A DNA stretch of 64,000 nt, taken from a virus. The first letter of the stretch is position 1. Each line of letters starts with the position of its first letter. The notes below the pieces were generated by a model. It made no database searches. It was not told where the DNA came from and worked only from the letters and a program-made list of their open reading frames with translations. Positions 1 through 64,000 of the stretch are shown piece by piece. The stretch is from positions 1 through 64,000 of the IMG/VR virus record IMGVR_UViG_3300020125_000155, one strand, 5' to 3'. Made by a program: the position numbers and the translations under genes.

Positions 1-178
1 AACCGTAGACATCAAACGGATAGAACCGGCTGCATAGCTTCTCAAACGAAGTGCCATCCCCAACGCCTAGCTCCAGCAACGGCCCATCCCCCACGGCATC
101 AAGTATCTTTTCGACCCCCGTGCAGTTGGTGAAGTGTTCCATCTCAAAAAACTTGGTGAGCTTTAAGTTCTTGTCCAT
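1..178 (-). CDS. Class I SAM-dependent methyltransferase, N-terminal fragment (continues past window edge)
   Basis: A minus-strand ATG at 178 opens a frame that stays open to position 1: MDKNLKLTKFFEMEHFTNCTGVEKILDAVGDGPLLELGVGDGTSFEKLCSRFYPFDVYG. LELGVGDG is a SAM-binding motif I. It is absent from the ORF track because there is no stop inside the window. Confidence 0.5.
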   Translation of the reverse strand, partial: MDKNLKLTKFFEMEHFTNCTGVEKILDAVGDGPLLELGVGDGTSFEKLCSRFYPFDVYG

Positions 179-7051: not shown

Positions 7052-7090
7052 GCCCCGGCAGGCTCATTCCTGACCGGGGCAATCTTTTTC
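7052..7090 (+). terminator. Rho-independent terminator-like hairpin with T-run
   Basis: GCCCCGG (7052-7058), 15-nt loop, CCGGGGC (7074-7080), then aatcTTTTTc. It lies in a region of about 870 bp without convincing genes. Confidence 0.45.
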
Positions 7091-15901: not shown

Positions 15902-16203
15902 TAAATCATCCAAATCGGGGCAAGAAAAACAGCGAGCGAGCCGTTGTGGTGACGACTAGCCATCGGGGCGTGTTCTTTGGGTATGCCCACGACGTTGACG
16001 GCGAAATCATCAGGCTCCGGGCGGCCCGGAACTGCGTCTATTGGGCCTCGACCATTAAGGGCTTCATGGGGCTTGCCGCTACTGGCCCGAACAAAGATTG
16101 CAAAGTCGGCCCCGCCGCCGACATTTCGCTCCGTGATATTACGAGCGTCATGGAATGCACTCCCCAGGCAGTCCAGGCATGGGAGAGCGCGCCGTGGAAG
16201 TAA
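15898..16203 (+). CDS. Hypothetical phage protein (101 aa)
   Basis: GTG start with AGGAGA 7 nt upstream. VVVTTSHRGVFFGYAHD...ARNCVYWASTIKGFMGLAATGP looks like a conserved globular phage protein. Confidence 0.6.
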   Translation: MINHPNRGKKNSERAVVVTTSHRGVFFGYAHDVDGEIIRLRAARNCVYWASTIKGFMGLAATGPNKDCKVGPAADISLRDITSVMECTPQAVQAWESAPWK

Positions 16204-21219: not shown

Positions 21220-21890
21220 TAGTATGCCGATTGTCCGTGGTAGCGGACTATAACACGCGGTCGCCCAAATACGCTAATTCCGGCTAATTTGCGTCCCGAA
21301 CTGGTAACTACTGTCACAGCCCGCACAATGTCGTTTACCGCGTCCGGGTCATGGTCGCTGCACGTATGGCAGTCAGGACGCTCGATAAAGGTCAGATTGG
21401 CGGGGTTAAACCCGGGGCCAGGAACCAGCCTGCCGCAGCCTAGCCCCCCAGTATCGGCGCAATTCGGGTTATAGGTCTCCTGGGCCCGCAAGACATTGCC
21501 GGGGATGGGAATACCCCCGCACCATTCCGACACCTGTATGACCGCTATTAGGTCAATGCGATGCCTTGTACCGGCAGCAACGTCCGGGGCATGGTTTGCC
21601 CCGCAGGAGAACCCAATAACGACCTCTTTAACCGTGGCAGGATCGGCACTTATCGCATTCGCTACGGATTGCGTGTCCGTATATTGGTAAATAACGACAC
21701 GGGTAACGCTGGGGATTCTAGCCACTCTTGCCGCGATGTTATCCATTCCCCCATTGTCAAAAGCCTCCCCGCCAAGCGGCAGAAGGGCATAAACATGGGT
21801 TCCGCTCGTAGAGCTAGGGTCCGGTACAGGGATTACCGGGGCTGTGGCGCAGCCAGCAAGCACCAGCGCGGCAAAAATCGTCGCTCTCAT
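21219..21890 (-). CDS. Lipoprotein with G-x-S-x-G nucleophile-elbow motif (putative esterase/lipase-fold)
   Basis: MRATIFAALVLAGCATAP (lipobox LAGC). VVIGFSCGAN contains GFSCG. It lies directly downstream of the endolysin gene. Confidence 0.5.
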   Translation of the reverse strand: MRATIFAALVLAGCATAPVIPVPDPSSTSGTHVYALLPLGGEAFDNGGMDNIAARVARIPSVTRVVIYQYTDTQSVANAISADPATVKEVVIGFSCGANHAPDVAAGTRHRIDLIAVIQVSEWCGGIPIPGNVLRAQETYNPNCADTGGLGCGRLVPGPGFNPANLTFIERPDCHTCSDHDPDAVNDIVRAVTVVTSSGRKLAGISVFGRPRVIVRYHGQSAY

Positions 21891-22537
21891 CGTCCAACCC
21901 CCATAACTTGAAGGTCTTGAGGATCGTAAGCCTTCCCGTAGGCAAGGGGAATACGATCATATTTCGCCGTATAGCCCTCTAGTGGTGCCTTGGCGGGTGG
22001 GAAAGCTAAGCCCAAGCTATAGGCCCGCAAATCTACAATCCGCGCTGACCAGCCGCCGCGATAGACCGGCCAAGTCCCCAAGCCCTGCAAAAATCTAAGC
22101 CGCGCGTCACAGAGACCGTTGATAAACGCCCGTGGCTCACAGCCGTTGATTGCGGTCAGCGTCTTATTGCCGAGTATTCCATCAATATCGCTACCCGTAA
22201 AACCAACTACCCTTTGTGCGTACTTGACCGAGCGAGACGGGCCAGAGTTCACCCCAAAGTCAAACACCACACAATCCGCGCCCACGTTGAGAGCGTTAAA
22301 GGCGCAAGCCGTAGCGTATTTGGTAGCATAAATATCGTCGGCTTCCGACAACGGCATTGCCCGGACCAGTGGTGCCCATCGCACCATGGAATCCATAGCC
22401 TCATGGCGATGCTCCGCTAGGTCGTAACAAGTAATTCCGTATTTGGTCGGTCCACCGGGGTCGTTACGGTCCCAGCCATAGCCCCCTTCGTAGCGCCCCA
22501 CCATTCTTTCAACGAAAGCTTTATAATCAATTATCAT
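21887..22537 (-). CDS. Endolysin, GH108 N-terminal domain plus PG_binding_3-like C-terminus
   Basis: 216 aa from ATG 22537 (ATGA-coupled). RYEGGYGWDRNDPGGPTKYGIT is the GH108 signature. The C-terminal RLRFLQGLGTWPVYRGGWSARI is peptidoglycan-binding-like. Confidence 0.8.
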   Translation of the reverse strand: MIIDYKAFVERMVGRYEGGYGWDRNDPGGPTKYGITCYDLAEHRHEAMDSMVRWAPLVRAMPLSEADDIYATKYATACAFNALNVGADCVVFDFGVNSGPSRSVKYAQRVVGFTGSDIDGILGNKTLTAINGCEPRAFINGLCDARLRFLQGLGTWPVYRGGWSARIVDLRAYSLGLAFPPAKAPLEGYTAKYDRIPLAYGKAYDPQDLQVMGVGR

Positions 22538-23889
22538 GTAGTTAGCGTTTGCAGTTGTGTGGCTGTTGCGGCGATGGTCCACGCGCCGAATTGTTGATAG
22601 TTTCCGTAAACATTTGAGCCACTACTTGTGCTACCAATCTCAAGACTCGTTGGCGCAGACGCAAACAAATTATTGCTGTCAGTTGCGGCAGGATTCCCAT
22701 TCGCAGAAATTCCTCGGCTTCCGGTCGTGCCTCCCGCTGCAATAACATTCTTCGCTGACCATGAGGTTATTCCAGTTGTAAGGGTATGACCGGCACCATC
22801 CGCAGTTGCCGCAAGGCTTGATGAGCTTTGAAATATCTTCGACCCGGCATTATTATCACCAACAAGCCTGCTCGACACAAATTGCTGATTGATGGTATTG
22901 CTGAAAAACGTGGCGGTAGTTGCCGTCCACGGAACAGTTAAAATATCCGCCACTCGCTGCACCGTTCCCGATGTAGTCGGGATGTAGGAGGAGGCGAAAG
23001 CGAGGGCCTCAAGCTGCGCGCCCCATAGGTAAATCCCATTGCCTGTCACGCCGAGATAACTTTGCGTATTGTTGGCTGTTGCAATCCCAACTGTGAAGAA
23101 TTCTTGTGAAGCGCCTGTACCTCCAGTGCGCGTTACCGTGCAGCGATACCACCCATTCCCAACATTATTAATAGTTGCGGTACTGCCAGCGGCATTAGTT
23201 CCGACAACACCGTTAGACAGATCAAAAAACGTATCATGGAACACATTGTTCGTGACCGCACTGATTACCAGCCATGTACGTTCCGCAGCTTTAGCGTAAA
23301 CTGACCATGTCCAAGGCACTGCCGTAAGAGTAAAGCTCTGCGATGTTTGATGTAATCCGTTGCTATTATCCTCCGCGAGCTTATCTGCCGTAGTCGTGCC
23401 ATCTGGAGCCGCTATGGCATTCGCAGAAACCGTTACACCTGTTAGAAAAGCGGTCCATACGGCATCATCAAGCTCTTGCGAATGTAGGCACACATTCATG
23501 CTTGCCCCTTCGAGCAAAATCCCTTTCGGCGTTAGCGCGACCGGATCATAGTTGAAACGCAGCACGTTATTGCCAGCACTTGCCAACAACCCAGATGAGT
23601 TGGTGTAGGTCGCTGGTGAGGCGCGAGTGAAAGTACCGCTGATAACGGCAAGCCAAGATGCAAAAGACCCGTAAACAGTCCCGTTGTACCAATAATTATT
23701 GGTTGTTCCCTCAGTCGTAAAATCGGCATATAGAACGGGCTTCGTCGTGCCAACCAAAGGAAGCCATGGAGGCCCACCTGGAACACGTCCGGGTCCCGGG
23801 AATATAATGTTCTGTGCAATTACTCTGCGACAAGACGCGGCTAAGACGGCGGCGGAGGCTGCGCCGCGCAAAAACAATCGTCGCGTCAT
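22534..23889 (-). CDS. Fibre-like lectin-fold protein carrying a twin-arginine (Tat) signal
   Basis: The N-terminus MTRRLFLRGAASAAVLAASC matches the Tat motif (S/T)RRxFLK plus an h-region. The body contains GIYLWGAQLEALAFASSYIPTTSG, typical of phage fibre or LamG-like domains. Confidence 0.55.
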   Translation of the reverse strand: MTRRLFLRGAASAAVLAASCRRVIAQNIIFPGPGRVPGGPPWLPLVGTTKPVLYADFTTEGTTNNYWYNGTVYGSFASWLAVISGTFTRASPATYTNSSGLLASAGNNVLRFNYDPVALTPKGILLEGASMNVCLHSQELDDAVWTAFLTGVTVSANAIAAPDGTTTADKLAEDNSNGLHQTSQSFTLTAVPWTWSVYAKAAERTWLVISAVTNNVFHDTFFDLSNGVVGTNAAGSTATINNVGNGWYRCTVTRTGGTGASQEFFTVGIATANNTQSYLGVTGNGIYLWGAQLEALAFASSYIPTTSGTVQRVADILTVPWTATTATFFSNTINQQFVSSRLVGDNNAGSKIFQSSSSLAATADGAGHTLTTGITSWSAKNVIAAGGTTGSRGISANGNPAATDSNNLFASAPTSLEIGSTSSGSNVYGNYQQFGAWTIAATATQLQTLTT

Positions 23890-51475: not shown

Positions 51476-51963
51476 CCGCGACCGTTAAGCCTTTGGAGGG
51501 CTCCCAATGCGCTTGCGCCCGCGTGGGGGTACACCCCCTGCGTCGTCTTTCCGTTAATCGTTACCGCCCCAGAGGCGATGGTGGGGCCGTACTCAGCCCC
51601 GCCGCCAACAAAACTACCCTTCAGGTTAGTCTGTATGGGTTTGGCATAAGTCTCCCCCACCTGCACATTGTCACGGAGGTCCGTGATCTTCAAATGGGAC
51701 ATCTCGGACACGGGGACACCAGCCATCGCCGCCGCCTGTTCGGCACGGGCGATAGACGAAGATTCCATCTCACGAAACACCTTGTCGGGCGTGTTGGTGG
51801 TAGCAGATCGTAACGATGGCATACGAATGACATCCCCCGGGTCATCCTCAAAGTCCTCCCCGCAGATGGGACAAGATTCCGGGTATGCCGTGGGGGAATA
51901 GAACTTCTCGCCGCACTCATGGCAGCGAATTCTTACGCGCGTCTTAGTACCGCCGCCCTGCAT
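51472..51963 (-). CDS. Zinc-ribbon protein (163 aa)
   Basis: The N-terminus is CHECGEKF...CPICGE (CxxC-N14-CxxC). It sits between TerL and the portal. Confidence 0.55.
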   Translation of the reverse strand: MQGGGTKTRVRIRCHECGEKFYSPTAYPESCPICGEDFEDDPGDVIRMPSLRSATTNTPDKVFREMESSSIARAEQAAAMAGVPVSEMSHLKITDLRDNVQVGETYAKPIQTNLKGSFVGGGAEYGPTIASGAVTINGKTTQGVYPHAGASALGALQRLNGRG

Positions 51964-53860
51964 ATCTCCAGCTATTCCTTAAAAGTTGCGCCTGAGAGGT
52001 TAATCTACCTACTTTTTTCGTCTTAAAAAAGTCCTCCAGGTGGTTCTGATTGAAAAGGGCTACCTGATCCACAATGCTAAGGCGTCGTCTTGATTCTTCC
52101 GCCTCTCTGGTCCGCTTCTGGGCGATAAGCCCGTTCATCACCTTAGTTTCCCAATAATGAACGGCCAAGGCCAGCGCAAACACCCTATCATCCTTCATTT
52201 TCCCGGGGGCTTTGATCGAATCGCCCTCCCGAGCAATGGTTTTCATCTCATCGACAGCCGAAAGACTACGTACATGCAGCTTGTCATTAGCCACAAAGTC
52301 ACGAAGTCTCTCCATGACGGTAACTTTTCGACCGATATTCGTAACCCAGTGCCAATTATAACCAGCACCCATAGAGTCAGGACGAGTGTAAATGTAAGTC
52401 CGTACATTGCGGAAGATATCCGCGATTCCCTTGTCCTGGACGATTGCTTGGTGTCGGGCTGCATCAATCTTCATCCTTAAGTTTTTGAGTTCGTTAAAGA
52501 CCGCTGTTCCGGGTCCGTTAAGCTCAAGGATGTATCGTATCTCGGCTCTATTTTGACCGTACCAGCCAAGTAATGTCGCAATGACCCATGCCAACTGATA
52601 CGTAGTAACCAGCGGCCAAGCATACTCCGCGACTTGATCCACCCCATCAGCGTAACAGCGTAGTACCTGTATAGAAGATCGGTCATTGTCCTCATTCTCC
52701 CCGAATGCAGGGTCCACCCCCATCACATACATGCCGTCCGGGTCCGGTTCCTCCCAGACTTTGAGTTCGGTCATCCTCATATTTTCGGCCTGATACACCC
52801 GCATGTCGGTGAATTCAGCACCGACCCAGAACATATAACCCTTGAACTTATTGGAGACGTGCGCGCGGGTTAGCTCAGTAAGCTTCTCTTGCGGGAAGAA
52901 TACGGAACCCGTCTGCTGGAAGGCTTCTCCCTCAGTCCAAGGTTGTTCTTGGATACGAATCGGAGAACCCTCATAGTCCGGTCCTCCCTCATCGCTCGCG
53001 TCAGCCGTTGGGTCCATCTTGCGACGAATCCAAGCAAGCTGTTCAACGGAGACATCGAAGCCGTAGAGTTCCTTAACGGTTTGTATCTTTTCAATTTCTT
53101 TTGTTGTTGGTGGCGCTTTACCGTACATACCAAAGTCGAGGGCATCGCGTTCTATCCTCTGTGAGTCTTTCGACCACCACCCTAAGAAGATACACTTTCT
53201 ATGCAGCGGGTCCTTACGCGCCTCCTGCCACATTTCCCACCAGCGATTATAGCCACGCGCAGTAGACTCCCTAATATAGAGTCGATCCGGGTTCGTGTCC
53301 GAGAGCGACTGTTCAAACGCCTCAAGCCCTTCATCGTTATCGTAGGAACACAATTCAGATAGAGTGGCGAGAGCGAGGCCAACGCTTCGGCCAAGCGTAC
53401 CTGAACTTTTGGATTTTCTAACTCCCGCAGACATGAAGAGGACGCCCGAGTTGTTGTAGAGCGTGAGGCCCGCCCGGTTGTTCGTCTTGATCTTGGGGAA
53501 TTTGAGCGTTTTCGGTAGCTCATTTATCATTACCTCCAATTCAGCCCGCGATTCCTGCTTGTTCTGGTCGGTATCAAAGACAATCGCGCCCTTCAGACCA
53601 GCAAACATGCCCTCAAAGAAGATAATCAGGGCCCGAACAAGGGTGCTGATACCCAACTGGCGGCTTTTGAGAATGTAAACGTCGTGGACATCCGCCTCTA
53701 AGGCGTCGAAAATCTGGGTAATAGCGTAGCGTTGCCCCCAATAGAGGCTTTCGCCTAGACAAACCCGCCCGTAGTCCTTGGAATTGATAAAACAGCGGTC
53801 GAGGAAGGCGTAAAACGCCCTCTCCATCGCCTGCCGTTTAGACTTTGACCATCCAGCCAT
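51944..53860 (-). CDS. terL: Terminase large subunit
   Basis: 638 aa. Deviant Walker A KSRQLGIS (lambda gpA type, Lys at the motif start). RNase-H-like nuclease acidic motifs MGVDPAFG and KDDRVFALALAVHY. Confidence 0.8.
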   Translation of the reverse strand: MAGWSKSKRQAMERAFYAFLDRCFINSKDYGRVCLGESLYWGQRYAITQIFDALEADVHDVYILKSRQLGISTLVRALIIFFEGMFAGLKGAIVFDTDQNKQESRAELEVMINELPKTLKFPKIKTNNRAGLTLYNNSGVLFMSAGVRKSKSSGTLGRSVGLALATLSELCSYDNDEGLEAFEQSLSDTNPDRLYIRESTARGYNRWWEMWQEARKDPLHRKCIFLGWWSKDSQRIERDALDFGMYGKAPPTTKEIEKIQTVKELYGFDVSVEQLAWIRRKMDPTADASDEGGPDYEGSPIRIQEQPWTEGEAFQQTGSVFFPQEKLTELTRAHVSNKFKGYMFWVGAEFTDMRVYQAENMRMTELKVWEEPDPDGMYVMGVDPAFGENEDNDRSSIQVLRCYADGVDQVAEYAWPLVTTYQLAWVIATLLGWYGQNRAEIRYILELNGPGTAVFNELKNLRMKIDAARHQAIVQDKGIADIFRNVRTYIYTRPDSMGAGYNWHWVTNIGRKVTVMERLRDFVANDKLHVRSLSAVDEMKTIAREGDSIKAPGKMKDDRVFALALAVHYWETKVMNGLIAQKRTREAEESRRRLSIVDQVALFNQNHLEDFFKTKKVGRLTSQAQLLRNSWRYAGRRY

Positions 53861-54468: not shown

Positions 54469-54680
54469 CGCAAATACCTATGGCTGTATTGGCCTTTTAT
54501 CTCTGAGTTTATCGCCTGACCTACACTCGGAGCATTGGCAACCTTCTGCGCCGTATCCTCCGGTACGCCCGTGTACACACTCACCCGACCTGAATTCCAC
54601 GTAATTTGGAGTTCTTCCGTACCCTCATCATACGCAACCTTTTGAACCATGCTTGAATACACATTTTGCTCCCAAGCCAT
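54465..54680 (-). CDS. KTSC-domain protein (71 aa)
   Basis: SSMVQKVAYDEGTEELQITWNSGRVSVYTGVPEDTAQKVANAPSVGQAINSEIKGQY follows the KTSC pattern. Confidence 0.5.
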   Translation of the reverse strand: MAWEQNVYSSMVQKVAYDEGTEELQITWNSGRVSVYTGVPEDTAQKVANAPSVGQAINSEIKGQYSHRYLR

Positions 54681-55192
54681 TACAAAGACTCATTACAATT
54701 GCATCTCGCAAACTCACCGAACAATCTTCTGGCCTCCATATCATAAGCAGCCGACGCATGTTCTTTTTCTTTATAACAACCAATATGGACTGCTTTCCCA
54801 TCAACATGAATACGAGCAACCCATTTCCTGATATCAGAATGCCACACAACACCCTTTACCCCAGACGTGTTATCCTTCCGCAGCGAAGCGTTCTGTAATT
54901 GCTGTGATCTAAACGCCTCACGGAGATTGCACAAACGATTATCCGACCTCTCCCCGTTAATATGGTCAATCTCCGCAACAGGCCACTTACCGTGATTATA
55001 AAACCACGCGAGACGATGGGCATAATACTTCCGGTCCAACACTCTTATCGTTCTATATCCATGGGGTTCTAGGGTGCCCAAAAACCAATCTTTCTTATAC
55101 CCATTACCCGGCGTAATCCATTTGAATCGCCCCGTCTGCGGATCATAGCGCAACAACAATAGCAACTCTTCGTGAGATATTAGCTTACCCAC
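54680..55192 (-). CDS. HNH-AP2 homing endonuclease
   Basis: GYRTIRVLDRKYYAHRLAWFYNHGKWPVAEIDHINGERSDNRLCNLREA, then SGVKGVVWHSDIRKWVARIHVDGKAVHIGCYKEKEHASAAY. Lower GC than its flanks. Confidence 0.8.
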   Translation of the reverse strand: MGKLISHEELLLLLRYDPQTGRFKWITPGNGYKKDWFLGTLEPHGYRTIRVLDRKYYAHRLAWFYNHGKWPVAEIDHINGERSDNRLCNLREAFRSQQLQNASLRKDNTSGVKGVVWHSDIRKWVARIHVDGKAVHIGCYKEKEHASAAYDMEARRLFGEFARCNCNESL

Positions 55193-55846: not shown

Positions 55847-56047
55847 ATGAAGAACGGCCCCGACAGCGAGCGCATGTCAGTTCGTATTCTGGACAAGAAC
55901 GGCGACGAGATTGTTTCGTTTTTTAGCGACAAACCTACCGGAGACCGGGGCGGCTTCTCGGCCAGTCTTCGAGATGCCCTCGTAGCGTTCCGCAAGAAAT
56001 ACCCGAAGACTCGCTTCATTGATGTTGAATTTACGGGGCGCGCTTGA
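55847..56047 (+). CDS. Hypothetical protein (66 aa), moron-like plus-strand gene
   Basis: AAGGTGG RBS. Coupled to the next gene. Confidence 0.5.
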   Translation: MKNGPDSERMSVRILDKNGDEIVSFFSDKPTGDRGGFSASLRDALVAFRKKYPKTRFIDVEFTGRA

Positions 56048-56277
56048 TGCCCCGAGGCCCCAAAGGCGAACGCCGCCCCGCCGACACCAACGCCGCCGCC
56101 GTAATGATCGGCAAGATCGCTACTGGCGAGCTTGCCGACGTGACCACGGATGAGGGCAAGAACGCCGCTGCCGTCGCCTTGGGCCGCATGGGCGGGAAGG
56201 CGCGAGCCGAATCAATGTCGGCCCGAAAGAGAAAAGAGATTGCTAAGAAAGCTGCGGCAACACGCTGGAAACGCTAA
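56047..56277 (+). CDS. Small basic protein with GRMGGKARAESMSARKRKEIAKKAAATRWKR tail
   Basis: TGATG coupling. The C-terminal GGKARA...R-EIA-KAA--RW motif is common in small plasmid and phage DNA/RNA-binding proteins. Confidence 0.5.
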   Translation: MPRGPKGERRPADTNAAAVMIGKIATGELADVTTDEGKNAAAVALGRMGGKARAESMSARKRKEIAKKAAATRWKR

Positions 56278-56298: not shown

Positions 56299-56682
56299 TT
56301 AAATTGATTTTACAAAACAATCCGCTAAACTGAGACACCACCCACTGGCGTAATCCTCTCTTTTCTGGAGCATTAGCTGGTGGATCATGGGCAACAAAAC
56401 AGCATCGTCATCCTCTACCGATTCGTCCGAAAACAAAAGCATTGGTATTTTCAATAGCGGTTGTTTCATCTGACTATACCACGGACTATCAGGCGGCACC
56501 CTCCAGACCAGAATTCGCCTGCGGTCTCTCTTATGCGGACCCAATTGCAGGAATTCCAACTCGCACTCTTCCTCATATCTCATCGCCCGCTGTTTCGTCT
56601 TAGTCAAAAGCTTAGACGGCTGGCGAATCCGCGATTGTCGATCTTTGTGCGTAGCGAAAAACTCCTCATCGGTCATGTTCAA
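56299..56682 (-). CDS. Hypothetical protein (127 aa)
   Basis: ORF downstream of the second sugar cluster. Confidence 0.5.
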   Translation of the reverse strand: MNMTDEEFFATHKDRQSRIRQPSKLLTKTKQRAMRYEEECELEFLQLGPHKRDRRRILVWRVPPDSPWYSQMKQPLLKIPMLLFSDESVEDDDAVLLPMIHQLMLQKREDYASGWCLSLADCFVKSI

Positions 56683-56956
56683 TTACCGGCGCGTCTAGCT
56701 TACGTTGTTCTTTTGGCTTCTGGATAATATCTCGGGCCTTGTTCCGAATAACCCGAACCCATTTATCCAACGCATCGAGTGGGTAATCCCCGGTCGCCTT
56801 ATGCGATGCAACCGCCGCCTCCGCCAGCACTTCGGCCATTGCCTCTGCGTATTTAATGATTGCGTGTTGCGTCTGGACCGTACCGACTAAGTGACGCGCA
56901 TAACCGTCTAATTCGTCATCGGTCATTAGTAGTGGGTTTTTATTCAAGATATTCAT
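56666..56956 (-). CDS. Hypothetical protein (96 aa)
   Basis: ATG 56956, ATGA-coupled to the FkbM gene. Confidence 0.5.
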   Translation of the reverse strand: MNILNKNPLLMTDDELDGYARHLVGTVQTQHAIIKYAEAMAEVLAEAAVASHKATGDYPLDALDKWVRVIRNKARDIIQKPKEQRKLDAPVIEHDR

Positions 56957-57744
56957 ACCGCAACCTCCTTCCACACCTCCCCCACCGCGTATATGCTTGA
57001 AAACAGGATATTTGTGTTCATCATGGACGGGATAATCCTTGTCTGGGACGGAACCCGCGTCGGCAATGCACCGCTCTTATGCAGTAAAAACGTCTCGTAA
57101 TGGTGTTCCGCCATAAATTCTCGTAAGCGTTCCTGACTCGCCCCCAACAATGCCATGGCTTGCTCGTTCAATTCGGCCACAATGTACTGGCACTGGAGCT
57201 TATCCGCCGCGCCCAATAACGCCGCTTCCTCCGCGCCCTCAATATCTAGCTTAATAAAGTCTGCCTGCGGGTAATCAGCTAACGTAACGGAATCGTATTC
57301 CTTACACGCGCCGCCATTATTGCCAAGAGTATTGGTCCCCGGGTCCATCGCAAAATAAAATTTCACCTTTTCATGTGCCCGCCACAGCGGTTTGCGAACA
57401 ATCTCCACATTCTTAAGCTTATTCAGACTAATGTTTTGCTCAAGCTTCCAAAGATTGTTGTCGCCGGGTTCAATCGCCAACACTTTTCCTTTGTCGCCCA
57501 CCATTTTCGCCATGAGGACGCTGAAGAAACCGACATTCGCCCCGCCGTCGATCACAAACATCCCGGGCTTAATTACCCGTTGCATGACGTGAAGCAACTC
57601 GGGCTCACAGCAACCGTATAGCTGGAATTGTTCTACCATCCCCTTGTCGCAAGGGTTATCCGGATGATAGATCATCCTAAACTTGTACGTTACGCCATTA
57701 AGCGTGAACGATACGTCGTTTATTGACGACTTTGCTTGGAACAT
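56953..57744 (-). CDS. FkbM-family SAM-dependent methyltransferase
   Basis: VIDGGANVGFFSV, LAIEPGDNN and DFIKLDIEGAEEAALLG are FkbM signatures. Confidence 0.75.
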   Translation of the reverse strand: MFQAKSSINDVSFTLNGVTYKFRMIYHPDNPCDKGMVEQFQLYGCCEPELLHVMQRVIKPGMFVIDGGANVGFFSVLMAKMVGDKGKVLAIEPGDNNLWKLEQNISLNKLKNVEIVRKPLWRAHEKVKFYFAMDPGTNTLGNNGGACKEYDSVTLADYPQADFIKLDIEGAEEAALLGAADKLQCQYIVAELNEQAMALLGASQERLREFMAEHHYETFLLHKSGALPTRVPSQTRIIPSMMNTNILFSSIYAVGEVWKEVAV

Positions 57745-59119
57745 TCTTTTTCAGCCTGTTTTCTAGCGCAGCACAAATCCGGTCGAACACTGGACGCCAC
57801 TGAAGGTCCTCACCCTGCTTAAATACGCGATGCTTGGGAGCCCACAGAACATCCGTACCGTCATGCCCCACCCGGTAGTCCGGGCCCATAAAGCTATAAG
57901 GCATCCAGAACTCTTTGCCCGCCATTGAGCAAATATGCCCCAAGGCACTTTCACAGCCGATGACCAAATCTAGATTCTGAAGTAGCGACACCGTATCGCA
58001 CACGTCGCGGATATACGGAGACAAGCCTTTAATCACCGCCGTAGCGCCTATGGAGTTGGCTTCCTCGGCCCCTTCCCCAACCTGTAACGAATAAAGTTGC
58101 ACCCCCGGGACCCGCGCTAACTCCAAAAACTGCTGCACGGGGATCGAACGGTGTTCGTCAATGTCGTTTAGCTTGGAACCCCTCCACGCAATGCCGACGT
58201 TTAGCTTCTGGTCGGGGACCATCCACGTTGTCGGCATGTGAAACAGCGGCGGCTTGATCTGAGGAGTATTGCGTATCTCCTCATCCTCCAGCCCAAGCGC
58301 GAATGGCAGGCTAACAAATGTTGTCCACACATCGGCTTGGGGAAAGTTAGACCCGAACGGCAACAGATTGATATTCTTTATACCGATGAAGGCGTGCATA
58401 AACAGCCGCATCAACTCCGGTTGAACGTAGGCATGAATGTATTTCGCTTTTTTCGCCGCCTTTCCGACGAACCGAGCAAACGTAAGGGTGTCACCGAGCC
58501 CCTGATCTGCGACAAGAAATACAACCTTGCCCTCCTCGCCCTCCCACTTAGGATACGGGTATTGGAGGAACTGGTGGAGCCGCCACTTGAACCTGATTTC
58601 AAAGTGCTTGAATCCTTCCTTTAGCTTGCGGGCGAATAACAGGGAGAAAGCGTAAGCCGCCTCGTTAACCACGTCATCCGGTTCAAATTCGTATGCCTTT
58701 TTCGCGCATTGCAGGGCCTTTGCAGTTTCGTTTCTAAGGCCATGGACCTGAGACAGATTTAGCCACGCTTGATGGCAGTTCGGGTCAAGGTCTAACGCTT
58801 TCATTAGCGCATTGTAAGCTTCATCCATCCTTCCCGTCGTGAACAGACGCCACCCGAGATTGGAATATATCTTTATCAATTCATCGCGGTCTGTTTCGTG
58901 CTGCAACGCCTTTCTGTAGGCGGCAATGGCGGAGTGAAAATAGTTAAGGTCCGAACAATTATTGCCGTATTGGAACCAGCCGTGCGCCCACGTTGGGTCT
59001 ACGTCGCACGCAGAGGCAAATAACTGGAAAGCAGTCGTGGGGTTAGACGGCTTAGACTTGTCGTTTATAGTTTCGACTGCTTTATTGAAGAACTTGATTG
59101 CTGTTGCCCTATCGCCCAT
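57698..59119 (-). CDS. TPR-repeat / GT-B glycosyltransferase fusion (GT9- or GT41-like; FlmG/OGT-type architecture)
   Basis: The N-terminal ~170 aa contain TPR-like repeats (AIAAYRKALQHE, EAYNALMKALDLDPNCHQAW, KALQCAKKAYEFEP). The C-terminal half contains VADQGLGDTLTFARF and GCESALGHICSMAG, typical of TPR-linked heptosyltransferase-like GT-B domains. Confidence 0.6.
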   Translation of the reverse strand: MGDRATAIKFFNKAVETINDKSKPSNPTTAFQLFASACDVDPTWAHGWFQYGNNCSDLNYFHSAIAAYRKALQHETDRDELIKIYSNLGWRLFTTGRMDEAYNALMKALDLDPNCHQAWLNLSQVHGLRNETAKALQCAKKAYEFEPDDVVNEAAYAFSLLFARKLKEGFKHFEIRFKWRLHQFLQYPYPKWEGEEGKVVFLVADQGLGDTLTFARFVGKAAKKAKYIHAYVQPELMRLFMHAFIGIKNINLLPFGSNFPQADVWTTFVSLPFALGLEDEEIRNTPQIKPPLFHMPTTWMVPDQKLNVGIAWRGSKLNDIDEHRSIPVQQFLELARVPGVQLYSLQVGEGAEEANSIGATAVIKGLSPYIRDVCDTVSLLQNLDLVIGCESALGHICSMAGKEFWMPYSFMGPDYRVGHDGTDVLWAPKHRVFKQGEDLQWRPVFDRICAALENRLKKNVPSKVVNKRRIVHA

Positions 59120-60057
59120 GAAACTATCCTGAGTCCTTCTTCCAGAGTAACCAGTGGTTTGTAGTATTTGGAAAGCTCAGCCGTATCCGCTACCCGCGCA
59201 AACACGCCTTCCGGTTTGTATGGGTCATTTTTTATTACCGCGTCATGGCCCAGCATCTTGCACGTAATTTCGGCCAATTCCCGAAACGAGACCGCGCGAC
59301 CAGTTCCGAGATTGAGAGGCTTGCCGGATAACTCCTCTACATCCATCGTCTTTTCGACGGCATGAACCACGTCGTCTATCCAGATAAAATCCCTTAATTG
59401 CCCGCCAGAGCCCCAAACCACAACCGGATTTTCTTTGCTAACAATCCGCCTGACGATTGCGGGAACGGGGTAGGTTAAATCCTGATCCTCCCCGTACCCG
59501 CCGAACGGACGGTAAATACGAACATCGAGTCCGTAATGTTCGTGGGCGTACTTTGCTAGAAGCTCTCCGCTGAGTTTGGCCCAACCGTAGGTCATGTCGG
59601 GAAACTCAAAATCATCCGTCTCGTTAAATTCCAGGGCAATCTCGGGCAACGGGACGTTGTTATCCCTTTGCTGGAGACTGAGCGGATACACAGCGGAGGA
59701 CGAAAAATAAATTACCTTGGGCATTGTCTTAGATCGCACCACCCAATTGAACATCTCCGCATCAATCGAGAGGTCCGTGGCAACCGCCAATGGATCACTT
59801 TCGATATTCACCCTGCCCCCGACAACCGCCGCTAGATGCACCACAAGGTCAAACCGTGCAGACGAGTAGGCATGAAAGAAATCGCGCACGTCCATGTAGT
59901 GCAGATCGAATTTCTTTTCCGGCTGGTGCGGCCAATCATCCAGCGGCTTCCCGGAATAGAGGTTATCCACTACGACAACATCATGCCCAAGGTTAATCAG
60001 GCGATTGACAAACCGCCGTCCGACAAACCCGCAGCCTCCGGTAACTAGCGCTCTCAT
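59065..60057 (-). CDS. NAD-dependent sugar-nucleotide epimerase/dehydratase (extended SDR)
   Basis: 330 aa from ATG 60057 (ATGA-coupled). VTGGCGFVG Rossmann motif and the YGWAK catalytic Y-x-x-x-K. Confidence 0.75.
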   Translation of the reverse strand: MRALVTGGCGFVGRRFVNRLINLGHDVVVVDNLYSGKPLDDWPHQPEKKFDLHYMDVRDFFHAYSSARFDLVVHLAAVVGGRVNIESDPLAVATDLSIDAEMFNWVVRSKTMPKVIYFSSSAVYPLSLQQRDNNVPLPEIALEFNETDDFEFPDMTYGWAKLSGELLAKYAHEHYGLDVRIYRPFGGYGEDQDLTYPVPAIVRRIVSKENPVVVWGSGGQLRDFIWIDDVVHAVEKTMDVEELSGKPLNLGTGRAVSFRELAEITCKMLGHDAVIKNDPYKPEGVFARVADTAELSKYYKPLVTLEEGLRIVSWAIGQQQSSSSIKQSKL

Positions 60058-60245
60058 ACCGCCCCCTCCGCGCACATCAAATGGCACTTAGCCGGATCAA
60101 TGGCGGGAAAAAATACCACGCCGCCATACCTCGTAATACTGTAATGCCTCGGCACGCCCGTTTCCTTCGGATTGTTATTCCGCAATTGCCACATTTCCTC
60201 TTCGGTTATCAGGGTTATGGCCCTGTAGCTCTCAGGAAAAGACAT
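60054..60245 (-). CDS. Hypothetical protein (63 aa)
   Basis: Coupled ORF within the sugar cluster. Confidence 0.45.
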   Translation of the reverse strand: MSFPESYRAITLITEEEMWQLRNNNPKETGVPRHYSITRYGGVVFFPAIDPAKCHLMCAEGAV

Positions 60246-60672
60246 CCCAATTTCCCAAATCAGAAGGAAGGTCGGCGGCTAGGCAGTCAACCTTGAGGTC
60301 CTTTCGTTCTCCGAACGCTACCGCAAGATTGTTCTTTGCGGTGTTGCGAATTCCATTGACGCTGTGAGTCGCGCGAAGCAAATCCCCCTCATACGCCTTA
60401 TCCCCGTGGTAACTACCTTTCCGCACAACCGATTCATTTTCCCATATCCATCGGTTTGCCAACATGACCATCATAATCATCCGCAGATCGTAGGCGCGGA
60501 ACCGAAAGTCCTTCTCGCCGTGAAGCCGGTTTAGCTCCGAATTTATGTCTTGCTCAATCAGTCCGATTTCGGACAGATACGATTCGCGGTTTTCCCCAAT
60601 AAAGATTGACTTCAGCAATACGATGCTGAGTCGGTCAATCAATTCGGCAAGCGTGGGGAGATACTGTCTCAT
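60232..60672 (-). CDS. DUF4254-like protein (146 aa)
   Basis: LAELIDRLSIVLLK ... NRWIWENE ... HSVNGIRNTAKN resembles DUF4254, a family seen in sugar-modification clusters. Confidence 0.4.
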   Translation of the reverse strand: MRQYLPTLAELIDRLSIVLLKSIFIGENRESYLSEIGLIEQDINSELNRLHGEKDFRFRAYDLRMIMMVMLANRWIWENESVVRKGSYHGDKAYEGDLLRATHSVNGIRNTAKNNLAVAFGERKDLKVDCLAADLPSDLGNWDVFS

Positions 60673-61952
60673 AGCGGAGGCAAGCTGTGGAAATCGAATT
60701 TGACGTGCGGCAGATACGGTTGCGGGTCGCGTGATCTTATACCGTAGAAACTTAACCCGGGTTGTAGCGCGGTAACTTTAACTGTTCGATAGGAGCAAGC
60801 GCCGGGAACGGATATAGCGAGCGTACCCGAATGACTCTCGGGCGGAATGCCGGGCGTACAGCCATACCCCGAAACCTCATCCTCCACCTTAACCTGAGAA
60901 CCCGCCTCTCCCCCGGAGACCAAAATATCGACCGGGCCCATGACGGGAATCTCAATGATGGGGGGATTATCCCACCTAACCTGCGTGCTGCACGCTTCGT
61001 CGGCCAGCCCAAAACCGGCCTTCCAGGCAAAACATCCGTAGCCAAGCGACCACTTGAATCTCCAGTCGCCAGAATAAACCGCGCCGAGACTCGGTAGCTG
61101 GTGCGGGAAGATCGTCCAGGTGTCGCCGTAAAATAATCTCAGCCCCGGGGTGACGGGGAATTCCACCGCACCCTTACGTATCTGTTCCAAATTCCCGGCA
61201 TATTTCCTGAAGGCTTTTTCGTTCTGCAATTCCTTCACGGGCTTTTTTGCCATCATCAAGCCCATTGACGCGATATCTTCTAGCTGAGTTGCTTTGGCGG
61301 GCGTAAGCGCAAGGCTACAAAAGCCGTGCTGGGCGAGCATCCTGTCCCATTGCCAATCGGCTACCAGCATGTGTTCCGAGCCCCGGAAGGCCCAATAAGC
61401 TCCGATATCCACACCCGAAAGCATGGAAAAGGTCTTACGGTTCTCCACCGTCATCCCAGTGCGGTAATGCTGAAGGATCAACTCAGCGGCTTCGCGGGTC
61501 ATAATAATCATCCCCGCGCCGAGATTGTGCATTACCGCATAACCGTCGTGCTGGATGAGGATTCTGTCAACGTAGGTGCGCGCAGACACCGCGCCAACCT
61601 TAAGTCCCGCTCTCTCCCCCTTCTGGAAAAGCGCGATGGTTTTATCGAACCAGTCATCGTGGAGAAGGACATCGTTTTCAACAAGTCCGATATAATCGTA
61701 TGCAACACCTTCCTCTCTTCCGTACTCAAGTAGGGTAGTAAGAGCGCAGACAATGTAGCGACACGACCCACCTGTGAGGACCACCGCCGTTTTAACCTTG
61801 TCGCATTTACTAGCGTGGTACGCTTTACCACCTTCCGTTTGCGAGCCATCGAACCAGAATACGTCATATTTTTTGGGCTCCAATAATGGTTTCAGAGTTT
61901 TTTTCGTCAGGTGCACTCTGTCCTTACTAGAAAAAGCAATGGCTACTCTCAT
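60669..61952 (-). CDS. GT-A-like glycosyltransferase with unassigned C-terminal domain (427 aa)
   Basis: RVAIAFSSKDR, the GLVENDVLL acidic motif and MIIMTREAA. The C-terminal ~180 aa are unassigned. Confidence 0.4.
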   Translation of the reverse strand: MRVAIAFSSKDRVHLTKKTLKPLLEPKKYDVFWFDGSQTEGGKAYHASKCDKVKTAVVLTGGSCRYIVCALTTLLEYGREEGVAYDYIGLVENDVLLHDDWFDKTIALFQKGERAGLKVGAVSARTYVDRILIQHDGYAVMHNLGAGMIIMTREAAELILQHYRTGMTVENRKTFSMLSGVDIGAYWAFRGSEHMLVADWQWDRMLAQHGFCSLALTPAKATQLEDIASMGLMMAKKPVKELQNEKAFRKYAGNLEQIRKGAVEFPVTPGLRLFYGDTWTIFPHQLPSLGAVYSGDWRFKWSLGYGCFAWKAGFGLADEACSTQVRWDNPPIIEIPVMGPVDILVSGGEAGSQVKVEDEVSGYGCTPGIPPESHSGTLAISVPGACSYRTVKVTALQPGLSFYGIRSRDPQPYLPHVKFDFHSLPPL

Positions 61953-62434
61953 ATTGACCCCGCAAACGATCCATACACTTCATTTGCTTTCGCAAGATAA
62001 GCCGCAGCCGCTTTCTCTGGCGTCGAAAAATGTCCGAGATAAATTCTTTGGCCGTCTCTAGAGATTCTAGCCACCCACCTGTCCCCAGATTTAGACACAC
62101 CACGAAATTTTACCGCACCACGCGGCGGCGAATTTATTTGATTCTCACTTCGGTCTGATTCTCTCAGATTGCTAAACACGTTGTCCGACTTAACCCTATT
62201 GATATGGTCGATATCGTTCGCAGGCCACTTACCAGTAACAAACCTCCAAATTATCCGATGTGCCACCAAAACCGTGTTGGATATGCCAACATAAACATAG
62301 CCGTCTGGTTTTATGGTGCCCGCAACCCGACCCGCGCTCCGACCATTTCGCCAACGCAACACGCCTTCTAGCGGGTCATAGCTAAAACGTCGGCGTAAAT
62401 ACTCTTGCGAAAGCCAATCAAAATCTCGCTTCAC
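61949..62434 (-). CDS. HNH-AP2 homing endonuclease (inside sugar cluster)
   Basis: GYVYVGISNTVLVAHRIIWRFVTGKWPANDIDHINRVKSDNVFSNLRES, then FRGVSKSGDRWVARISRDGQRIYLGHFSTPEKAAAAY. Confidence 0.8.
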   Translation of the reverse strand: MKRDFDWLSQEYLRRRFSYDPLEGVLRWRNGRSAGRVAGTIKPDGYVYVGISNTVLVAHRIIWRFVTGKWPANDIDHINRVKSDNVFSNLRESDRSENQINSPPRGAVKFRGVSKSGDRWVARISRDGQRIYLGHFSTPEKAAAAYLAKANEVYGSFAGSI

Positions 62435-63489
62435 GCCGCCCTCGCCTGCATGACCAACTCGACATCATCCATGAACGCCTGCGCCAACTCGTTAGCCTTT
62501 CGTGGGAACCATGTGACGTGAGACAGCGTGTCGTAGATCGAGCGAACCGGATGAACGTCTTTCGGTAAAGCGGGAATGTGATCGAGTACCGTTGCAAGGT
62601 GAACGATATGCTCCATGCCGAACATCTCAGCTTGGAGGTCCTTCACCAAGTCGTGCTGGTTTCGCTGTTGCCACACAAAGGGCTTGCCGAAATGGGTGAC
62701 GTAACCCTTTTCGCGCATGATCCTCTGGCAGATCAAAGACGCAAAGATATCGTCGTATCGACCGAACTGCGGACAGCAGAGGAGGGCGGGGGCAAGCTCC
62801 CGCAGAACTGCCGTATTTTGGGTATTGCAGACTGTCCAAGTGTTGTTATCGACAACGAATCCGGATTGGAACAACTCTGACACGTTATGCACAAAAGGAT
62901 GACGGGAAATCCTATCCACAGCCGATGTGTCAGGATCACCCAGAATAGTTCCTTGGGCCAAACCGATTTTCGCGTTGGTCGTAACCCCAATCGTTCCATC
63001 CGAAAGCTTCTCCTGCGGGAACCCACGTTGAACAACCGGATTTCCCCCGTCCTCTGGGTACTGCCACTGCCCCGCATCAAACCATGACCCTTTCGGGTCG
63101 CCAACAATGAGTCCGTCAAACGGAGCGCCGAACAGCATGGCAAAGTCGGCAAAGTAGGACGGCGAGAGAGGGAAATTATCGTCATCCACGCTGATTATAA
63201 CGTCAGCGCCCCAGCGTAGAGCTTCCAGAAGGGCTATGTTGCGGCGGGTGATTGTGTTCCAGCCGAGTAATTCAGAGCATTTATATTTGCTCTGGTCGCT
63301 AGGCTCCAGCCACGTACAGCCGTCAATCTTGGCGCAAAACTGATAGGCTTCGTGCGGGGTTTTCATATCCCCCGCCACAAAAAATCTCACGCCGAAGCCG
63401 TCGTCGTTAGGCGAGTGCGCCCGGTAAAGACTAAGAACCTTCGGAATGTTTATGGTGGTCGTCACCAGTCCTATTTTCATGCCTTGCAC
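62431..63489 (-). CDS. STELLO/DUF288- or GT75-like GT-A glycosyltransferase (352 aa)
   Basis: IGLVTTTINIP, FVAGDMKTP, RRNIALLEALRWGADVIISVDDDNFP. Confidence 0.5.
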   Translation of the reverse strand: MQGMKIGLVTTTINIPKVLSLYRAHSPNDDGFGVRFFVAGDMKTPHEAYQFCAKIDGCTWLEPSDQSKYKCSELLGWNTITRRNIALLEALRWGADVIISVDDDNFPLSPSYFADFAMLFGAPFDGLIVGDPKGSWFDAGQWQYPEDGGNPVVQRGFPQEKLSDGTIGVTTNAKIGLAQGTILGDPDTSAVDRISRHPFVHNVSELFQSGFVVDNNTWTVCNTQNTAVLRELAPALLCCPQFGRYDDIFASLICQRIMREKGYVTHFGKPFVWQQRNQHDLVKDLQAEMFGMEHIVHLATVLDHIPALPKDVHPVRSIYDTLSHVTWFPRKANELAQAFMDDVELVMQARAA

Positions 63490-63616
63490 CCACTAGCCAA
63501 TTATTCAGAATTTGACGCACCAACTGAGGAGTCGTGAGGTCGCGCTTGTGCGCCTCCTTTTGTATCGCGTGCCACTTTTTGGGTTCGACACGAATCATTA
63601 CCGGAAGAGTTTTCAT
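63431..63616 (-). CDS. Ribbon-helix-helix (CopG-like) protein (61 aa)
   Basis: MKTLPVMIRVEPKKWHAIQKEAHKRDLTTPQLVRQILNNWL. The tail overlaps the start of the downstream GT gene by 59 nt. Confidence 0.5.
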   Translation of the reverse strand: MKTLPVMIRVEPKKWHAIQKEAHKRDLTTPQLVRQILNNWLVGARHENRTGDDHHKHSEGS

Positions 63617-63846
63617 GCTTTACCCACCGGACGGAGTACGAGCATCGTACTTTCGTCATTGCTATACCGACTGTCAGAGGCCCCAAAACGGGCATAATCC
63701 CCGAGACAAATAAAAAACTGCCCGCGCTTAATTTCAAGCTTCCATTCATGCTTATGCAGCAATTCAAGCATCTGCTTTTCCTCATCACCTTCCGGAGTAA
63801 GGGTAATCTGGCGAAGCCCGTCCGTAATAACCAAAGAAATTTTCAT
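63613..63846 (-). CDS. Hypothetical protein (77 aa)
   Basis: ATGA-coupled on both sides. Confidence 0.5.
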   Translation of the reverse strand: MKISLVITDGLRQITLTPEGDEEKQMLELLHKHEWKLEIKRGQFFICLGDYARFGASDSRYSNDESTMLVLRPVGKA

Positions 63847-64000
63847 ACCAGCCTTACCGCTATTGCCTCTTGATGCTGTCTGCCGACAAATTCAATGTCA
63901 AAATAGGTTTCATCCAGCCATTCCCTCACCGCCCGCTGTTCGTGAAGGACATTGCACTCCGCGCCGTCAATCTCGTCAAACAACAGAACCGTACCCTTGC
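63843..64000 (-). CDS. C-terminal fragment of a protein (possibly TylF/class I O-methyltransferase-like); start lies beyond window
   Basis: The frame is open from the window edge: KGTVLLFDEIDGAECNVLHEQRAVREWLDETYFDIEFVGRQHQEAIAVRLV. The hydrophobic-DE/DD-C-A-EW pattern resembles the end of small sugar O-methyltransferases. Confidence 0.35.
   Translation of the reverse strand, partial: KGTVLLFDEIDGAECNVLHEQRAVREWLDETYFDIEFVGRQHQEAIAVRLV

Follow-up and report, generated by a model that had tools for sequence, protein, structure and literature searches.

The stretch of DNA analysed here, referred to as the window, comprises the 64,000 nucleotides at positions 1 to 64,000 of the IMG/VR virus record IMGVR_UViG_3300020125_000155. 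It holds, on its minus strand, a cassette of sugar-related genes just upstream of the terminase gene of an uncultured phage of ~64 kb. The central member of the cassette encodes a 473-residue protein (TPR-GT) in which tetratricopeptide repeats (TPR) precede a glycosyltransferase (GT) domain. As judged from structural models, the fusion of these repeats to a GT-B fold is real and the catalytic half is GT9-like rather than GT41-like, representing an atypical GT9 that is TPR-fused, carries an Asp-to-Glu substitution and lies below the reach of Pfam. In related phages, the cassette occupies a fixed place in the genome beside the packaging and structural genes and does not behave as a variable accessory gene. 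We consider it close to an even prospect that the cassette constitutes a conserved cytoplasmic protein-glycosylation system, with one or more virion proteins as the most likely acceptor and a host protein as the second choice.

All nine open reading frames (ORFs) listed for this locus in the original prediction are present on the minus strand, at the coordinates given in this report. Between positions 63846 and 56299, read downwards, the stop codon of one gene overlaps the start codon of the next or lies within a few bases of it, an operon-like packing. The features on which the argument depends are:

58580..59119, minus strand: TPR domain, about residues 1–180 of the 473-residue fusion (TPR_2 3e-16, TPR_1 2e-11; the repeats occupy the first ~170 residues)
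57698..58552, minus strand: GT9-like GT-B catalytic domain, about residues 190–460, followed by a disordered tail (Foldseek; PF01075 in relatives)
62431..63489, minus strand: GT75-family homologue of nucleoside-diphosphate (NDP)-pyranose/furanose mutases, 352 residues (family profile against MtdL)
59065..60087, minus strand: extended short-chain dehydrogenase/reductase (SDR), a nucleotide-sugar epimerase/reductase nearest to GDP-L-fucose synthase (PF01370 1e-38)
60669..61952, minus strand: conserved 427-residue protein, putative GT-A-type (GT2-like) transferase (sub-threshold hints)
56953..57744, minus strand: FkbM-family S-adenosylmethionine (SAM) methyltransferase (PF05050 5e-12, 46.8 bits against a cutoff of 22.7; TIGR01444 73.3 bits against 37.7)

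The TPR plus GT-B layout, which had been proposed from the sequence, is supported by the TPR_2 match and by the predicted fold. The AlphaFold model of the full-length 473-residue protein has a mean predicted local distance difference test score (pLDDT) of 94, with ten helices in the TPR part (pLDDT >93). The best PDB matches of this model are the GT41 enzymes SPINDLY (SPY), OGT and XcOGT (E 5e-12), with a TM-score of just 0.38. Full-length sequence searches were swamped by TPR matches, and no PDB sequence match was found outside the repeats. The choice between GT9 and GT41, for which the original prediction had advised structure prediction and remote homology, was examined in this way and came out GT9-like. 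Folded alone (pLDDT 86), the catalytic domain was matched in Foldseek by TibC (4rap and 4rb4; 1.2e-7, TM ~0.5), WaaC (5.7e-7), WaaF (6.1e-7) and a Veillonella GT9 protein (3tov; 7.3e-7, TM 0.58), while the GT41 enzyme XcOGT (2.5e-5) ranked under all GT9 and TibC matches. GT41 membership was ruled out on this basis (~1e-7 for GT9 and TibC versus 2.5e-5). The earlier comparison with GT41 and FlmG thus holds for the overall layout, since the full-length model superposes on SPY, OGT and XcOGT and the FlmG analogy is valid, but the catalytic domain itself is nearer to GT9. The domain, at ~280 residues, also has no space for the intervening domain of GT41, given the size of the GT41 catalytic region.

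The GT9 relationship is also apparent at the level of sequence motifs. The phage protein matches neither PF01075 nor PF13844, while two cyanobacterial multi-domain relatives (P0121 and P0144) pass PF01075 with 109 and 76 bits (cutoff 22), and their PF01075-matching stretch corresponds to the phage motif LDLVIGCESALGH. In hhalign alignments of this region, E390-S-A-L-G-H395 falls on DTGLSH of WaaC (E 0.078) and on DSGLMH of WaaF (E 0.0064), placing E390 on WaaC Asp261 as an Asp-to-Glu variant. Residues G209, D210, E390 and H395 are invariant among 55 homologues, which argues for an active enzyme. The G209-D210 pair resembles the N-terminal Gly-Asp motif of GT9, and the catalytic roles of the signature residues are presumed from those in WaaC. 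Several of the tblastn matches on plasmids are named 'glycosyltransferase family 9 protein' by the Prokaryotic Genome Annotation Pipeline (PGAP). A canonical lipopolysaccharide (LPS) heptosyltransferase was also considered and rejected: the protein has no PF01075 match of its own, has Glu for Asp261 and an N-terminal TPR domain, and its best structural match is the protein heptosyltransferase TibC. Action on LPS, which the original prediction had named as a refuting outcome, is thereby neither borne out nor dismissed.

The TPR-GT family comprises 754 close homologues and, in an exhaustive search, 32,317 representatives at E≤1e-3. Among viruses, a protein of the same architecture is found in Synechococcus phage S-SRM01 (TM 0.70, E 4e-21, 20–27% identity) and also in uncultured phages. 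Many of these representatives (among P0121–P0270) are giants of 1,400–3,100 residues, in which 3–6 copies of the catalytic domain are interleaved with TPR blocks; an example is P0121 (3114 residues, Oscillatoriales), and one Oscillatoriales member is annotated 'tetratricopeptide repeat protein'. On a contig from a Phycisphaerales metagenome-assembled genome (MAG; L007 1–10032), at least six TPR-GT9-like paralogues, 24–36% identical to the phage protein, follow one another on one strand as a tandem array.

The 352-residue protein (349 residues if translation begins, as is likely, at the ATG at 63480) is, by sequence comparison, a GT75 NDP-pyranose mutase homologue and the predicted supplier of a furanose donor. 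The earlier description of it as a STELLO/GT75-like GT-A enzyme was right about the GT75 family, but the protein is a mutase and is therefore not to be counted as a conventional glycosyltransferase. A profile built from 43 family sequences matches the MtdL structures (7yua, 7xpr) with an E-value of 4.5e-41 over profile positions 3–304, almost the full length, at a pairwise identity of 34%. The STELLO and RGP matches of the window protein itself are below the Pfam threshold, and many of its 755 homologues have PF03214 (RGP) or PF03385. Ten of the 13 MtdL residues involved in metal, nucleotide and sugar binding are identical, the exceptions being S228 (Thr), H287 (Q274) and D87 (I80). Conserved in the phage protein are D102, D104, N105, R155, D187, Q224, R244, D247, R276 and H279; the MtdL contacts that are kept include the DXD motif, the catalytic or autoglycosylated Arg159, Asp195, Gln229, Arg257, Asp260, Arg289 and His292. 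MtdL is a GT75 NDP-pyranose mutase whose products are GDP-L-galactofuranose or GDP-L-fucofuranose, whereas UDP-L-arabinofuranose is formed by its relatives in plants (PMC9937993). Distant, unannotated GT75 homologues in viruses were seen only in a few cyanomyoviruses, and no publication connecting GT75 with phages came up in our search of the literature.

The adjacent extended SDR (likely start ATG at 60057) was correctly recognised in the original prediction. Its best NCBIfam match is Fcl (3.9e-27), with ADP-heptose 6-epimerase a close second, and all matches are far under the equivalog cutoffs (e.g. 95.5 bits against NF047922, cutoff 500). In tblastn searches, the locus is matched by E. coli Fcl (2e-23), RfaD (6e-10) and Gmd (0.002), whereas generic 4-epimerases, GDP-mannose 3,5-epimerase and GDP-fucose synthetase among the solved structures all score between 1e-20 and 1e-26. 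An ADP-heptose epimerase is less likely, considering the RfaD score relative to that of Fcl. The Ser/Tyr/Lys triad is kept. A true, orthodox GDP-fucose synthase was ruled out because Cys109 and His179 of Fcl, the acid/base pair for epimerisation, are replaced by Ala132 and Tyr206. In every relative, the SDR beside the mutase again has Fcl as its best match. One relative (L002) has an additional SDR next to the Fcl-like one, whose best match is GDP-mannose 4,6-dehydratase (Gmd; 6e-46). Together, the Gmd-like SDR, the Fcl-like SDR and the GT75 homologue would form a complete route from GDP-mannose through a GDP-6-deoxyhexose to its furanose form. The combination of a dehydratase, an Fcl-like enzyme and GT75 follows the logic of the fucofuranose route of hygromycin A, and points to a GDP-6-deoxyhexofuranose as a candidate product.

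Two methyltransferases accompany these enzymes. The FkbM assignment is confirmed at the sequence level, with both PF05050 and TIGR01444 above their curated cutoffs. The second methyltransferase is split by the ends of the window:

63846..64000, minus strand: class I SAM methyltransferase (Methyltransf_24-like), C-terminal part, first gene of the cassette (PF13578 in the orthologue from the related locus L001)
2..178, minus strand: N-terminal part of the same methyltransferase, with motif I (LLELGVGDG), running over the contig junction

Two edge fragments had been suspected of being methyltransferases; they do contain methyltransferase sequence, but they are two halves of one gene. Residues 139–192 of the L001 orthologue match window positions 63995–63846 (52% identity, E 3e-12), and its residues 1–57 match positions 178–2 (E 1e-6). 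It follows that the contig is circular or terminally redundant and that the cassette continues across the ends of the window. This Methyltransf_24-like gene was seen only in the window and its closest relative.

The 427-residue protein has no match in Pfam, PHROG, NCBIfam or the PDB (the latter searched also by profile). It has 558 homologues, none with a Pfam domain; four of the 46 homologues compared with PF00535 match it weakly (E 0.02 or worse). Its N-terminal ~130 residues align by hhalign with WcaA (E 0.07) and WcaE (E 0.055), and its conserved E92-N-D94 falls on the DXD loop of GT75 (E 0.054); all three alignments are sub-threshold but co-linear. Thus, the ORF described previously as a GT-A-like enzyme is present, but the assignment itself has nothing firmer than sub-threshold, co-linear hints at ~0.05–0.07. 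The gene always follows that of the mutase, which makes its product a plausible user of the furanose donor. The count of at least four glycosyltransferases is therefore not borne out, the transferases amounting to one solid and one putative. Nor could an additional sugar cluster ('cluster 1') with a second SDR be found in the window: a scan for SDR motifs finds one SDR, neither the cassette proteins nor the E. coli probes (Gmd, Fcl, RfaD, GT2, GT4 and GT9) match anything elsewhere in the window by tblastn, and PHROG or Pfam scans of 30 other window ORFs reveal no sugar enzyme.

To assess conservation, the cassette proteins were compared by tblastn with seven MAG loci and with 30 IMG/VR loci picked solely by terminase similarity (59–89% identity), and presence was counted over those 15 viral loci whose sequence reaches ~6 kb or more upstream of the large terminase gene (TerL). 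The gene order is constant: GT75, 427-residue protein, (146-residue protein), SDR, TPR-GT, (FkbM), 127-residue protein, KTSC, TerL, portal. TPR-GT and the 427-residue protein are present in all 15 loci, GT75 in 13 and FkbM in ~12 of them, and in all relatives examined the cassette lies directly upstream of KTSC-TerL-portal. At the DNA level, no relatives were detected among 50,697 phage records, and the nearest terminase, from an uncultured phage, is 36% identical. The window represents nearly the entire phage contig, as identical proteins are encoded on a 64,358-bp Joint Genome Institute (JGI) contig that extends 358 bp beyond it.

None of the cassette proteins contains a transmembrane segment (19-residue Kyte-Doolittle scan, no segment reaching 1.6), and no flippase, polymerase, ligase, initiating phosphoglycosyltransferase or membrane protein is encoded in the cassette. 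The chemistry must therefore be cytoplasmic, with an acceptor that is soluble or located at the inner leaflet. In the mechanism that we propose, the NDP-furanose donor would be made by the SDR and the GT75 mutase, starting from an NDP-hexose or 6-deoxyhexose of the host. A protein acceptor would be docked by the TPR domain, and the GT9-like domain would move a sugar onto the docked protein, both by analogy with FlmG and TibC. The 427-residue protein would probably add the furanose, and O-methylation of the glycan would fall to FkbM and, in this sub-lineage, also to the first methyltransferase. Because relatives keep the module in place beside their packaging and structural genes, virion proteins are favoured as acceptors, an assignment that is possible but still on the doubtful side. 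A glycan on the virion would be expected to change its surface properties or recognition.

Several observations weigh against this interpretation. The C-terminal 303 residues of TPR-GT have no match in Pfam (even at E≤10) or in the PDB, with either a single sequence or a profile, and the Foldseek TM-scores of the catalytic domain are only 0.5–0.58. The classical GT9 acceptor is the LPS core rather than a protein, and TPRs may scaffold enzyme complexes rather than bind an acceptor. In the mutase, His287, an Mn2+ ligand in MtdL, corresponds to a Gln (Q274) that is invariant across the phage family, and Asp87 corresponds to Ile. The SDR lacks the acid/base pair of Fcl, so that any sugar assigned to it is tentative, and the 427-residue protein is no more than a putative transferase. 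The virion proteins of the window contain no Ser/Thr-repeat tracts, the richest 30-residue segment having 13 Ser/Thr, and no Ser/Thr-repeat fibre of the kind suggested at the outset is found among them. Finally, promoter and terminator sites are no more numerous than in shuffled sequence, so that the transcription unit is not defined by such a scan.

The cellular relatives of TPR-GT provide further context. A tblastn search of plasmids and chromids matched 116 records, chiefly from Azospirillum (44), Ralstonia (15), and Burkholderia with its allies. On two Azospirillum plasmids, the homologue is flanked by an FkbM methyltransferase gene and a GT4 gene. In Azospirillum B510, a homologue adjoins the gene for a 2,751-residue calcium-binding protein, and a SIS-domain protein, a GDP-L-fucose synthase and a type I secretion system are encoded in the vicinity. 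In B. ambifaria, the homologues are separated by 5.5 kb from an FkbM gene, and a YadA-like adhesin is encoded nearby. A megaplasmid of Ralstonia pseudosolanacearum (L045 4369–10810) carries a row consisting of an autotransporter (PF03797 2e-61), a TPR-sulfotransferase (PF13469 7e-46) and a 387-residue homologue, and the other Ralstonia megaplasmids among the matches listed have tblastn matches at corresponding positions. This row mirrors the arrangement of TibA/TibC and AIDA-I/Aah, with one gene, that of the TPR-sulfotransferase, between the autotransporter and the homologue. The row suggests an uncharacterised system that both glycosylates and sulfates an autotransporter, and it may serve as a hint of a protein acceptor for the phage enzyme. 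These contexts are anecdotal, yet the pairing of TPR-GT with FkbM recurs among them, and as a group they favour secreted proteins as acceptors.

The principal alternative, a serious rival that we consider rather unlikely, is that the cassette remodels a glycan of the host envelope (LPS core, O-antigen, capsule or glycolipid), leading to receptor masking or superinfection exclusion. The GT9-like enzyme would then act at the inner membrane face on a lipid-linked acceptor, and its TPR domain would tether it to host LPS-assembly proteins. Such a role would agree with a GT9-like domain that has WaaC and WaaF among its best structural matches and an aligned GT9 signature, and with the Azospirillum homologues, which cluster with GT4, GT2, FkbM and other methyltransferase genes typical of surface-polysaccharide loci. 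It would also suit a temperate phage, which this one may be, as a weak integrase-like ORF is present in the window. However, the cassette provides none of the flippase, polymerase, ligase, initiating or membrane functions listed above, and the module is fixed and syntenic beside the terminase rather than accessory near an integrase. Furthermore, the best structural match is a protein heptosyltransferase, TPRs are absent from canonical GT9 enzymes, and PF01075 does not recognise the phage protein.

The acceptor of a protein-glycosylation system could instead come from the host, with flagellin, pilin and secreted adhesins as examples, and its modification would block the receptors of competing phages or alter host behaviour. 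We regard this as distinctly unlikely. The TPR plus GT-B layout occurs in FlmG, which acts on flagellin, and in cyanobacterial Ogt, which acts on pilin, and the cellular homologues described above are adjacent to an autotransporter or near RTX-like and YadA-like proteins. The window also encodes a 158-residue homologue of the GcrA cell-cycle regulator (8612–9088, minus strand; PF07750, E 1.2e-20). GcrA is an alphaproteobacterial regulator, which hints at a host in that group, where FlmG-type systems are found, and suggests that the phage interferes with the cell cycle of its host. On the other hand, the flagellin link put forward in the original prediction finds no counterpart among the cellular relatives, as no flagellin (FliC-like) gene lies near any of the eight homologue loci examined. 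A scan of genome contigs for a FlmG/flagellin link yielded only phage-like contigs in unrelated MAGs and one Phycisphaerales paralogue array. Family scans of the cassette proteins revealed no nonulosonic-acid pathway, and the strict conservation beside structural genes fits a virion role better. The relatives' contigs are binned to conflicting, unrelated taxa (Hyphomicrobium, Acidiferrales, Solirubrobacteraceae, Verrucomicrobia), which do not point to one host.

Glycosylation of the phage DNA (hypermodified bases) against restriction, as in T-even phages, would be compatible with an entirely cytoplasmic set of enzymes, and phages are known to modify DNA with glycosyltransferases for which they supply the sugar nucleotides themselves. 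It is very improbable here: a non-exhaustive scan of the ORFs showed no hydroxymethylase or base-modification gene, DNA glycosylation offers no precedent for a TPR domain or an FkbM sugar methyltransferase, and the GT9/TibC similarity points to protein or LPS acceptors.

The remaining features of the locus are:

63613..63846, minus strand: 77-residue ORF, function unknown (ORF call, without Pfam match)
63431..63616, minus strand: 61-residue ORF, possibly ribbon-helix-helix (weak; PF13467 RHH_4, E 0.0018, 18.8 bits against a cutoff of 25)
61949..62434, minus strand: HNH-AP2 homing endonuclease, 161 residues (HNH_3 6e-14, AP2 5e-6, phrog_99 9e-54)
60232..60672, minus strand: conserved 146-residue protein, function unknown, with a weak DUF4254-like motif (orthologue matches)
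60054..60245, minus strand: 63-residue ORF, function unknown (orthologues in L001, L014 and L016)
56299..56974, minus strand: two small ORFs of 102 and 127 residues (no family match)
51944..53860, minus strand: large terminase, as context (phrog_2 1e-11; tblastn matches to annotated terminases; synteny)

The ribbon-helix-helix protein that had been assigned to 63431..63616 exists as an ORF, with a 67% identical orthologue in L001, but its family match is under the gathering threshold. Similarly, the DUF4254-like label of the 146-residue protein is reflected in weak PF14063 matches of two orthologues (L002, E 0.003; L001, E 0.07), but the window protein itself matches nothing in Pfam, NCBIfam or PHROGs; orthologues are found in L001–L003 and in several viral loci. 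The 63-residue protein also matches nothing in these three databases. In relatives, the 127-residue ORF is kept between the cassette and the terminase. Two small plus-strand ORFs of 66 and 77 residues (55847–56277) break the minus-strand run in that interval of the window, the latter being strongly basic and rich in Ala and Lys.

Mobile elements have entered the cassette region. The HNH-AP2 gene at 61949..62434, as annotated previously, is absent from L001–L006 and from 29 of the 30 viral loci; its absence in both close and distant relatives marks it as a mobile insertion outside the pathway. In total, the window has three HNH homing-endonuclease genes (54680–55192 and 61949–62434, minus strand; 12357–12992, plus strand), two of them of the HNH-AP2 type, with the copy at 54680–55192 as the second of that type. 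The two that flank or interrupt the cassette are absent from relatives and hence recent mobile insertions. Other loci have a serine-recombinase-like gene of ~235–254 residues between SDR and TPR-GT (L002 5996–6760, L003 6470–7177, L004 2758–3477, L006 6089–6793). The L002 copy, the only one scanned, has CcrB/XisF-type matches (E 1e-17 to 1e-20), and the adjacent 171-residue ORF (6946–7461), possibly of HNH type, has no NCBIfam match. Both are lacking in the window and in L001. The variable DNA of this interval was considered as a source of further sugar genes, but it holds these recombinase-like and HNH-type genes instead, and the interval looks like a recurrent insertion hot spot within the operon.

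Elsewhere in the window, a minus-strand gene at 21887–22582 encodes an endolysin-type protein with Glyco_hydro_108 and PG_binding_3 domains (E 6.5e-16), a type that occurs mainly in phages of Gram-negative hosts. The 6-bp unit TACGGC is repeated in tandem at 16257–16395 (23 copies, 90% matches), coding for a Gly-Tyr/Gly-Asp repeat (GYGYGDGDG...) in a plus-strand ORF (16155–16748) and for an Ala-Val repeat in an ORF on the opposite strand. A 167-residue ORF (17821–18324, minus strand) has a signal-like N-terminal segment and histidine-rich ends (HHRHHSHHYSHHRGH ... HSHHHRV), and may be a secreted metal-binding protein or peptidase. No tRNAs were found in the window.

Phage glycosylation cassettes and TPR-GT protein glycosyltransferases are both already known kinds of system. 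The combination of a GT75 furanose route, a TPR-GT9-like enzyme and one or two methyltransferases in a core phage module was not found in the literature searched. In its full extent, our proposal is that a lineage of soil and freshwater phages has its own cytoplasmic protein O-glycosylation, making a methylated, furanose-containing virion glycan with the first viral GT75 mutase as the donor source, and that the bacterial TPR-GT9-like enzymes form a general class of protein-glycosylating enzymes whose targets are autotransporters and other secreted adhesins; taken as a whole, this is unlikely. Glycosylation of virions or hosts by phages affects receptor recognition, evasion of immunity and defence, and particle stability, and few such systems are understood. 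The cassette would add a GT75 furanose-sugar route, none having been described in phages in the literature searched. The TPR-GT9-like family is very large and absent from Pfam, and no characterised member was found in the same literature. The module comprises few enzymes, all of them soluble, and holds a fixed place in a widespread uncultured phage lineage, which makes it a compact system for finding the target of this family.

Among known systems, mycobacteriophages have transferases beside their structural genes that are thought to glycosylate capsid and tail proteins. These enzymes are not known to be TPR-GT9-like. No GT75 or furanose route has been reported for the mycobacteriophage gene sets, whereas the present cassette has GT75. 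The view of phage-encoded transferases as glycosylators of virion capsid and tail proteins is echoed in PMC11256854. The S-SRM01 protein, which has the same architecture as TPR-GT, is itself uncharacterised. On the donor side, MtdL and Hyg20, from the biosynthesis of A201A and hygromycin A, resemble the phage mutase in profile score, DXD motif, Arg159 and sugar-phosphate contacts. The SDR that accompanies it is of the GDP-fucose-synthase type, in keeping with a GDP-L-fucose or GDP-L-galactose route (PMC9937993). MtdL and Hyg20 are encoded in antibiotic gene clusters, whereas the homologue described here belongs to a phage operon.

On the transferase side, the GT41 enzymes (OGT, SPINDLY, XcOGT) share the TPR plus GT-B architecture, but the superposition is driven by the TPRs. 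WaaC and WaaF share the GT-B fold, and their C-terminal signature can be aligned with ESALGH of the phage enzyme, which differs in its Glu at the position of Asp261 and in the added TPR domain. FlmG, the flagellin O-glycosyltransferase of Caulobacter and Brevundimonas, is similar by description, with a TPR domain at the N terminus and, at the C terminus, a GT-B domain of ~290 residues (309–596 in FlmG, ~190–460 here), and it is a soluble cytoplasmic enzyme, as predicted for TPR-GT. Its division of labour, in which the TPR domain binds the acceptor and the GT-B domain sets donor specificity, was adopted here as a working model. However, the TPR domain of FlmG (~310 residues) is longer than that of the phage protein (~180), and FlmG, whose donor sugar is pseudaminic or legionaminic acid, is genetically linked to flagellins and to nonulosonic-acid genes, neither of which was found in the phage cassette. 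TibC and Aah (BAHT family) are cytoplasmic, GT9-related GT-B enzymes that glycosylate proteins, and TibC is the best structural match to the phage domain (~12% identity). TibC differs in having no TPR, in forming an iron-containing dodecamer (according to PDB titles) and in using ADP-heptose; scans of the cassette proteins with Pfam and NCBIfam revealed no heptose-pathway genes, and the adjacent autotransporter gene typical of TibC and Aah is absent from the phage. With a GT9-like catalytic domain joined to a TPR domain, the cassette may connect the LPS-type heptosyltransferases with the protein glycosyltransferases TibC and FlmG.

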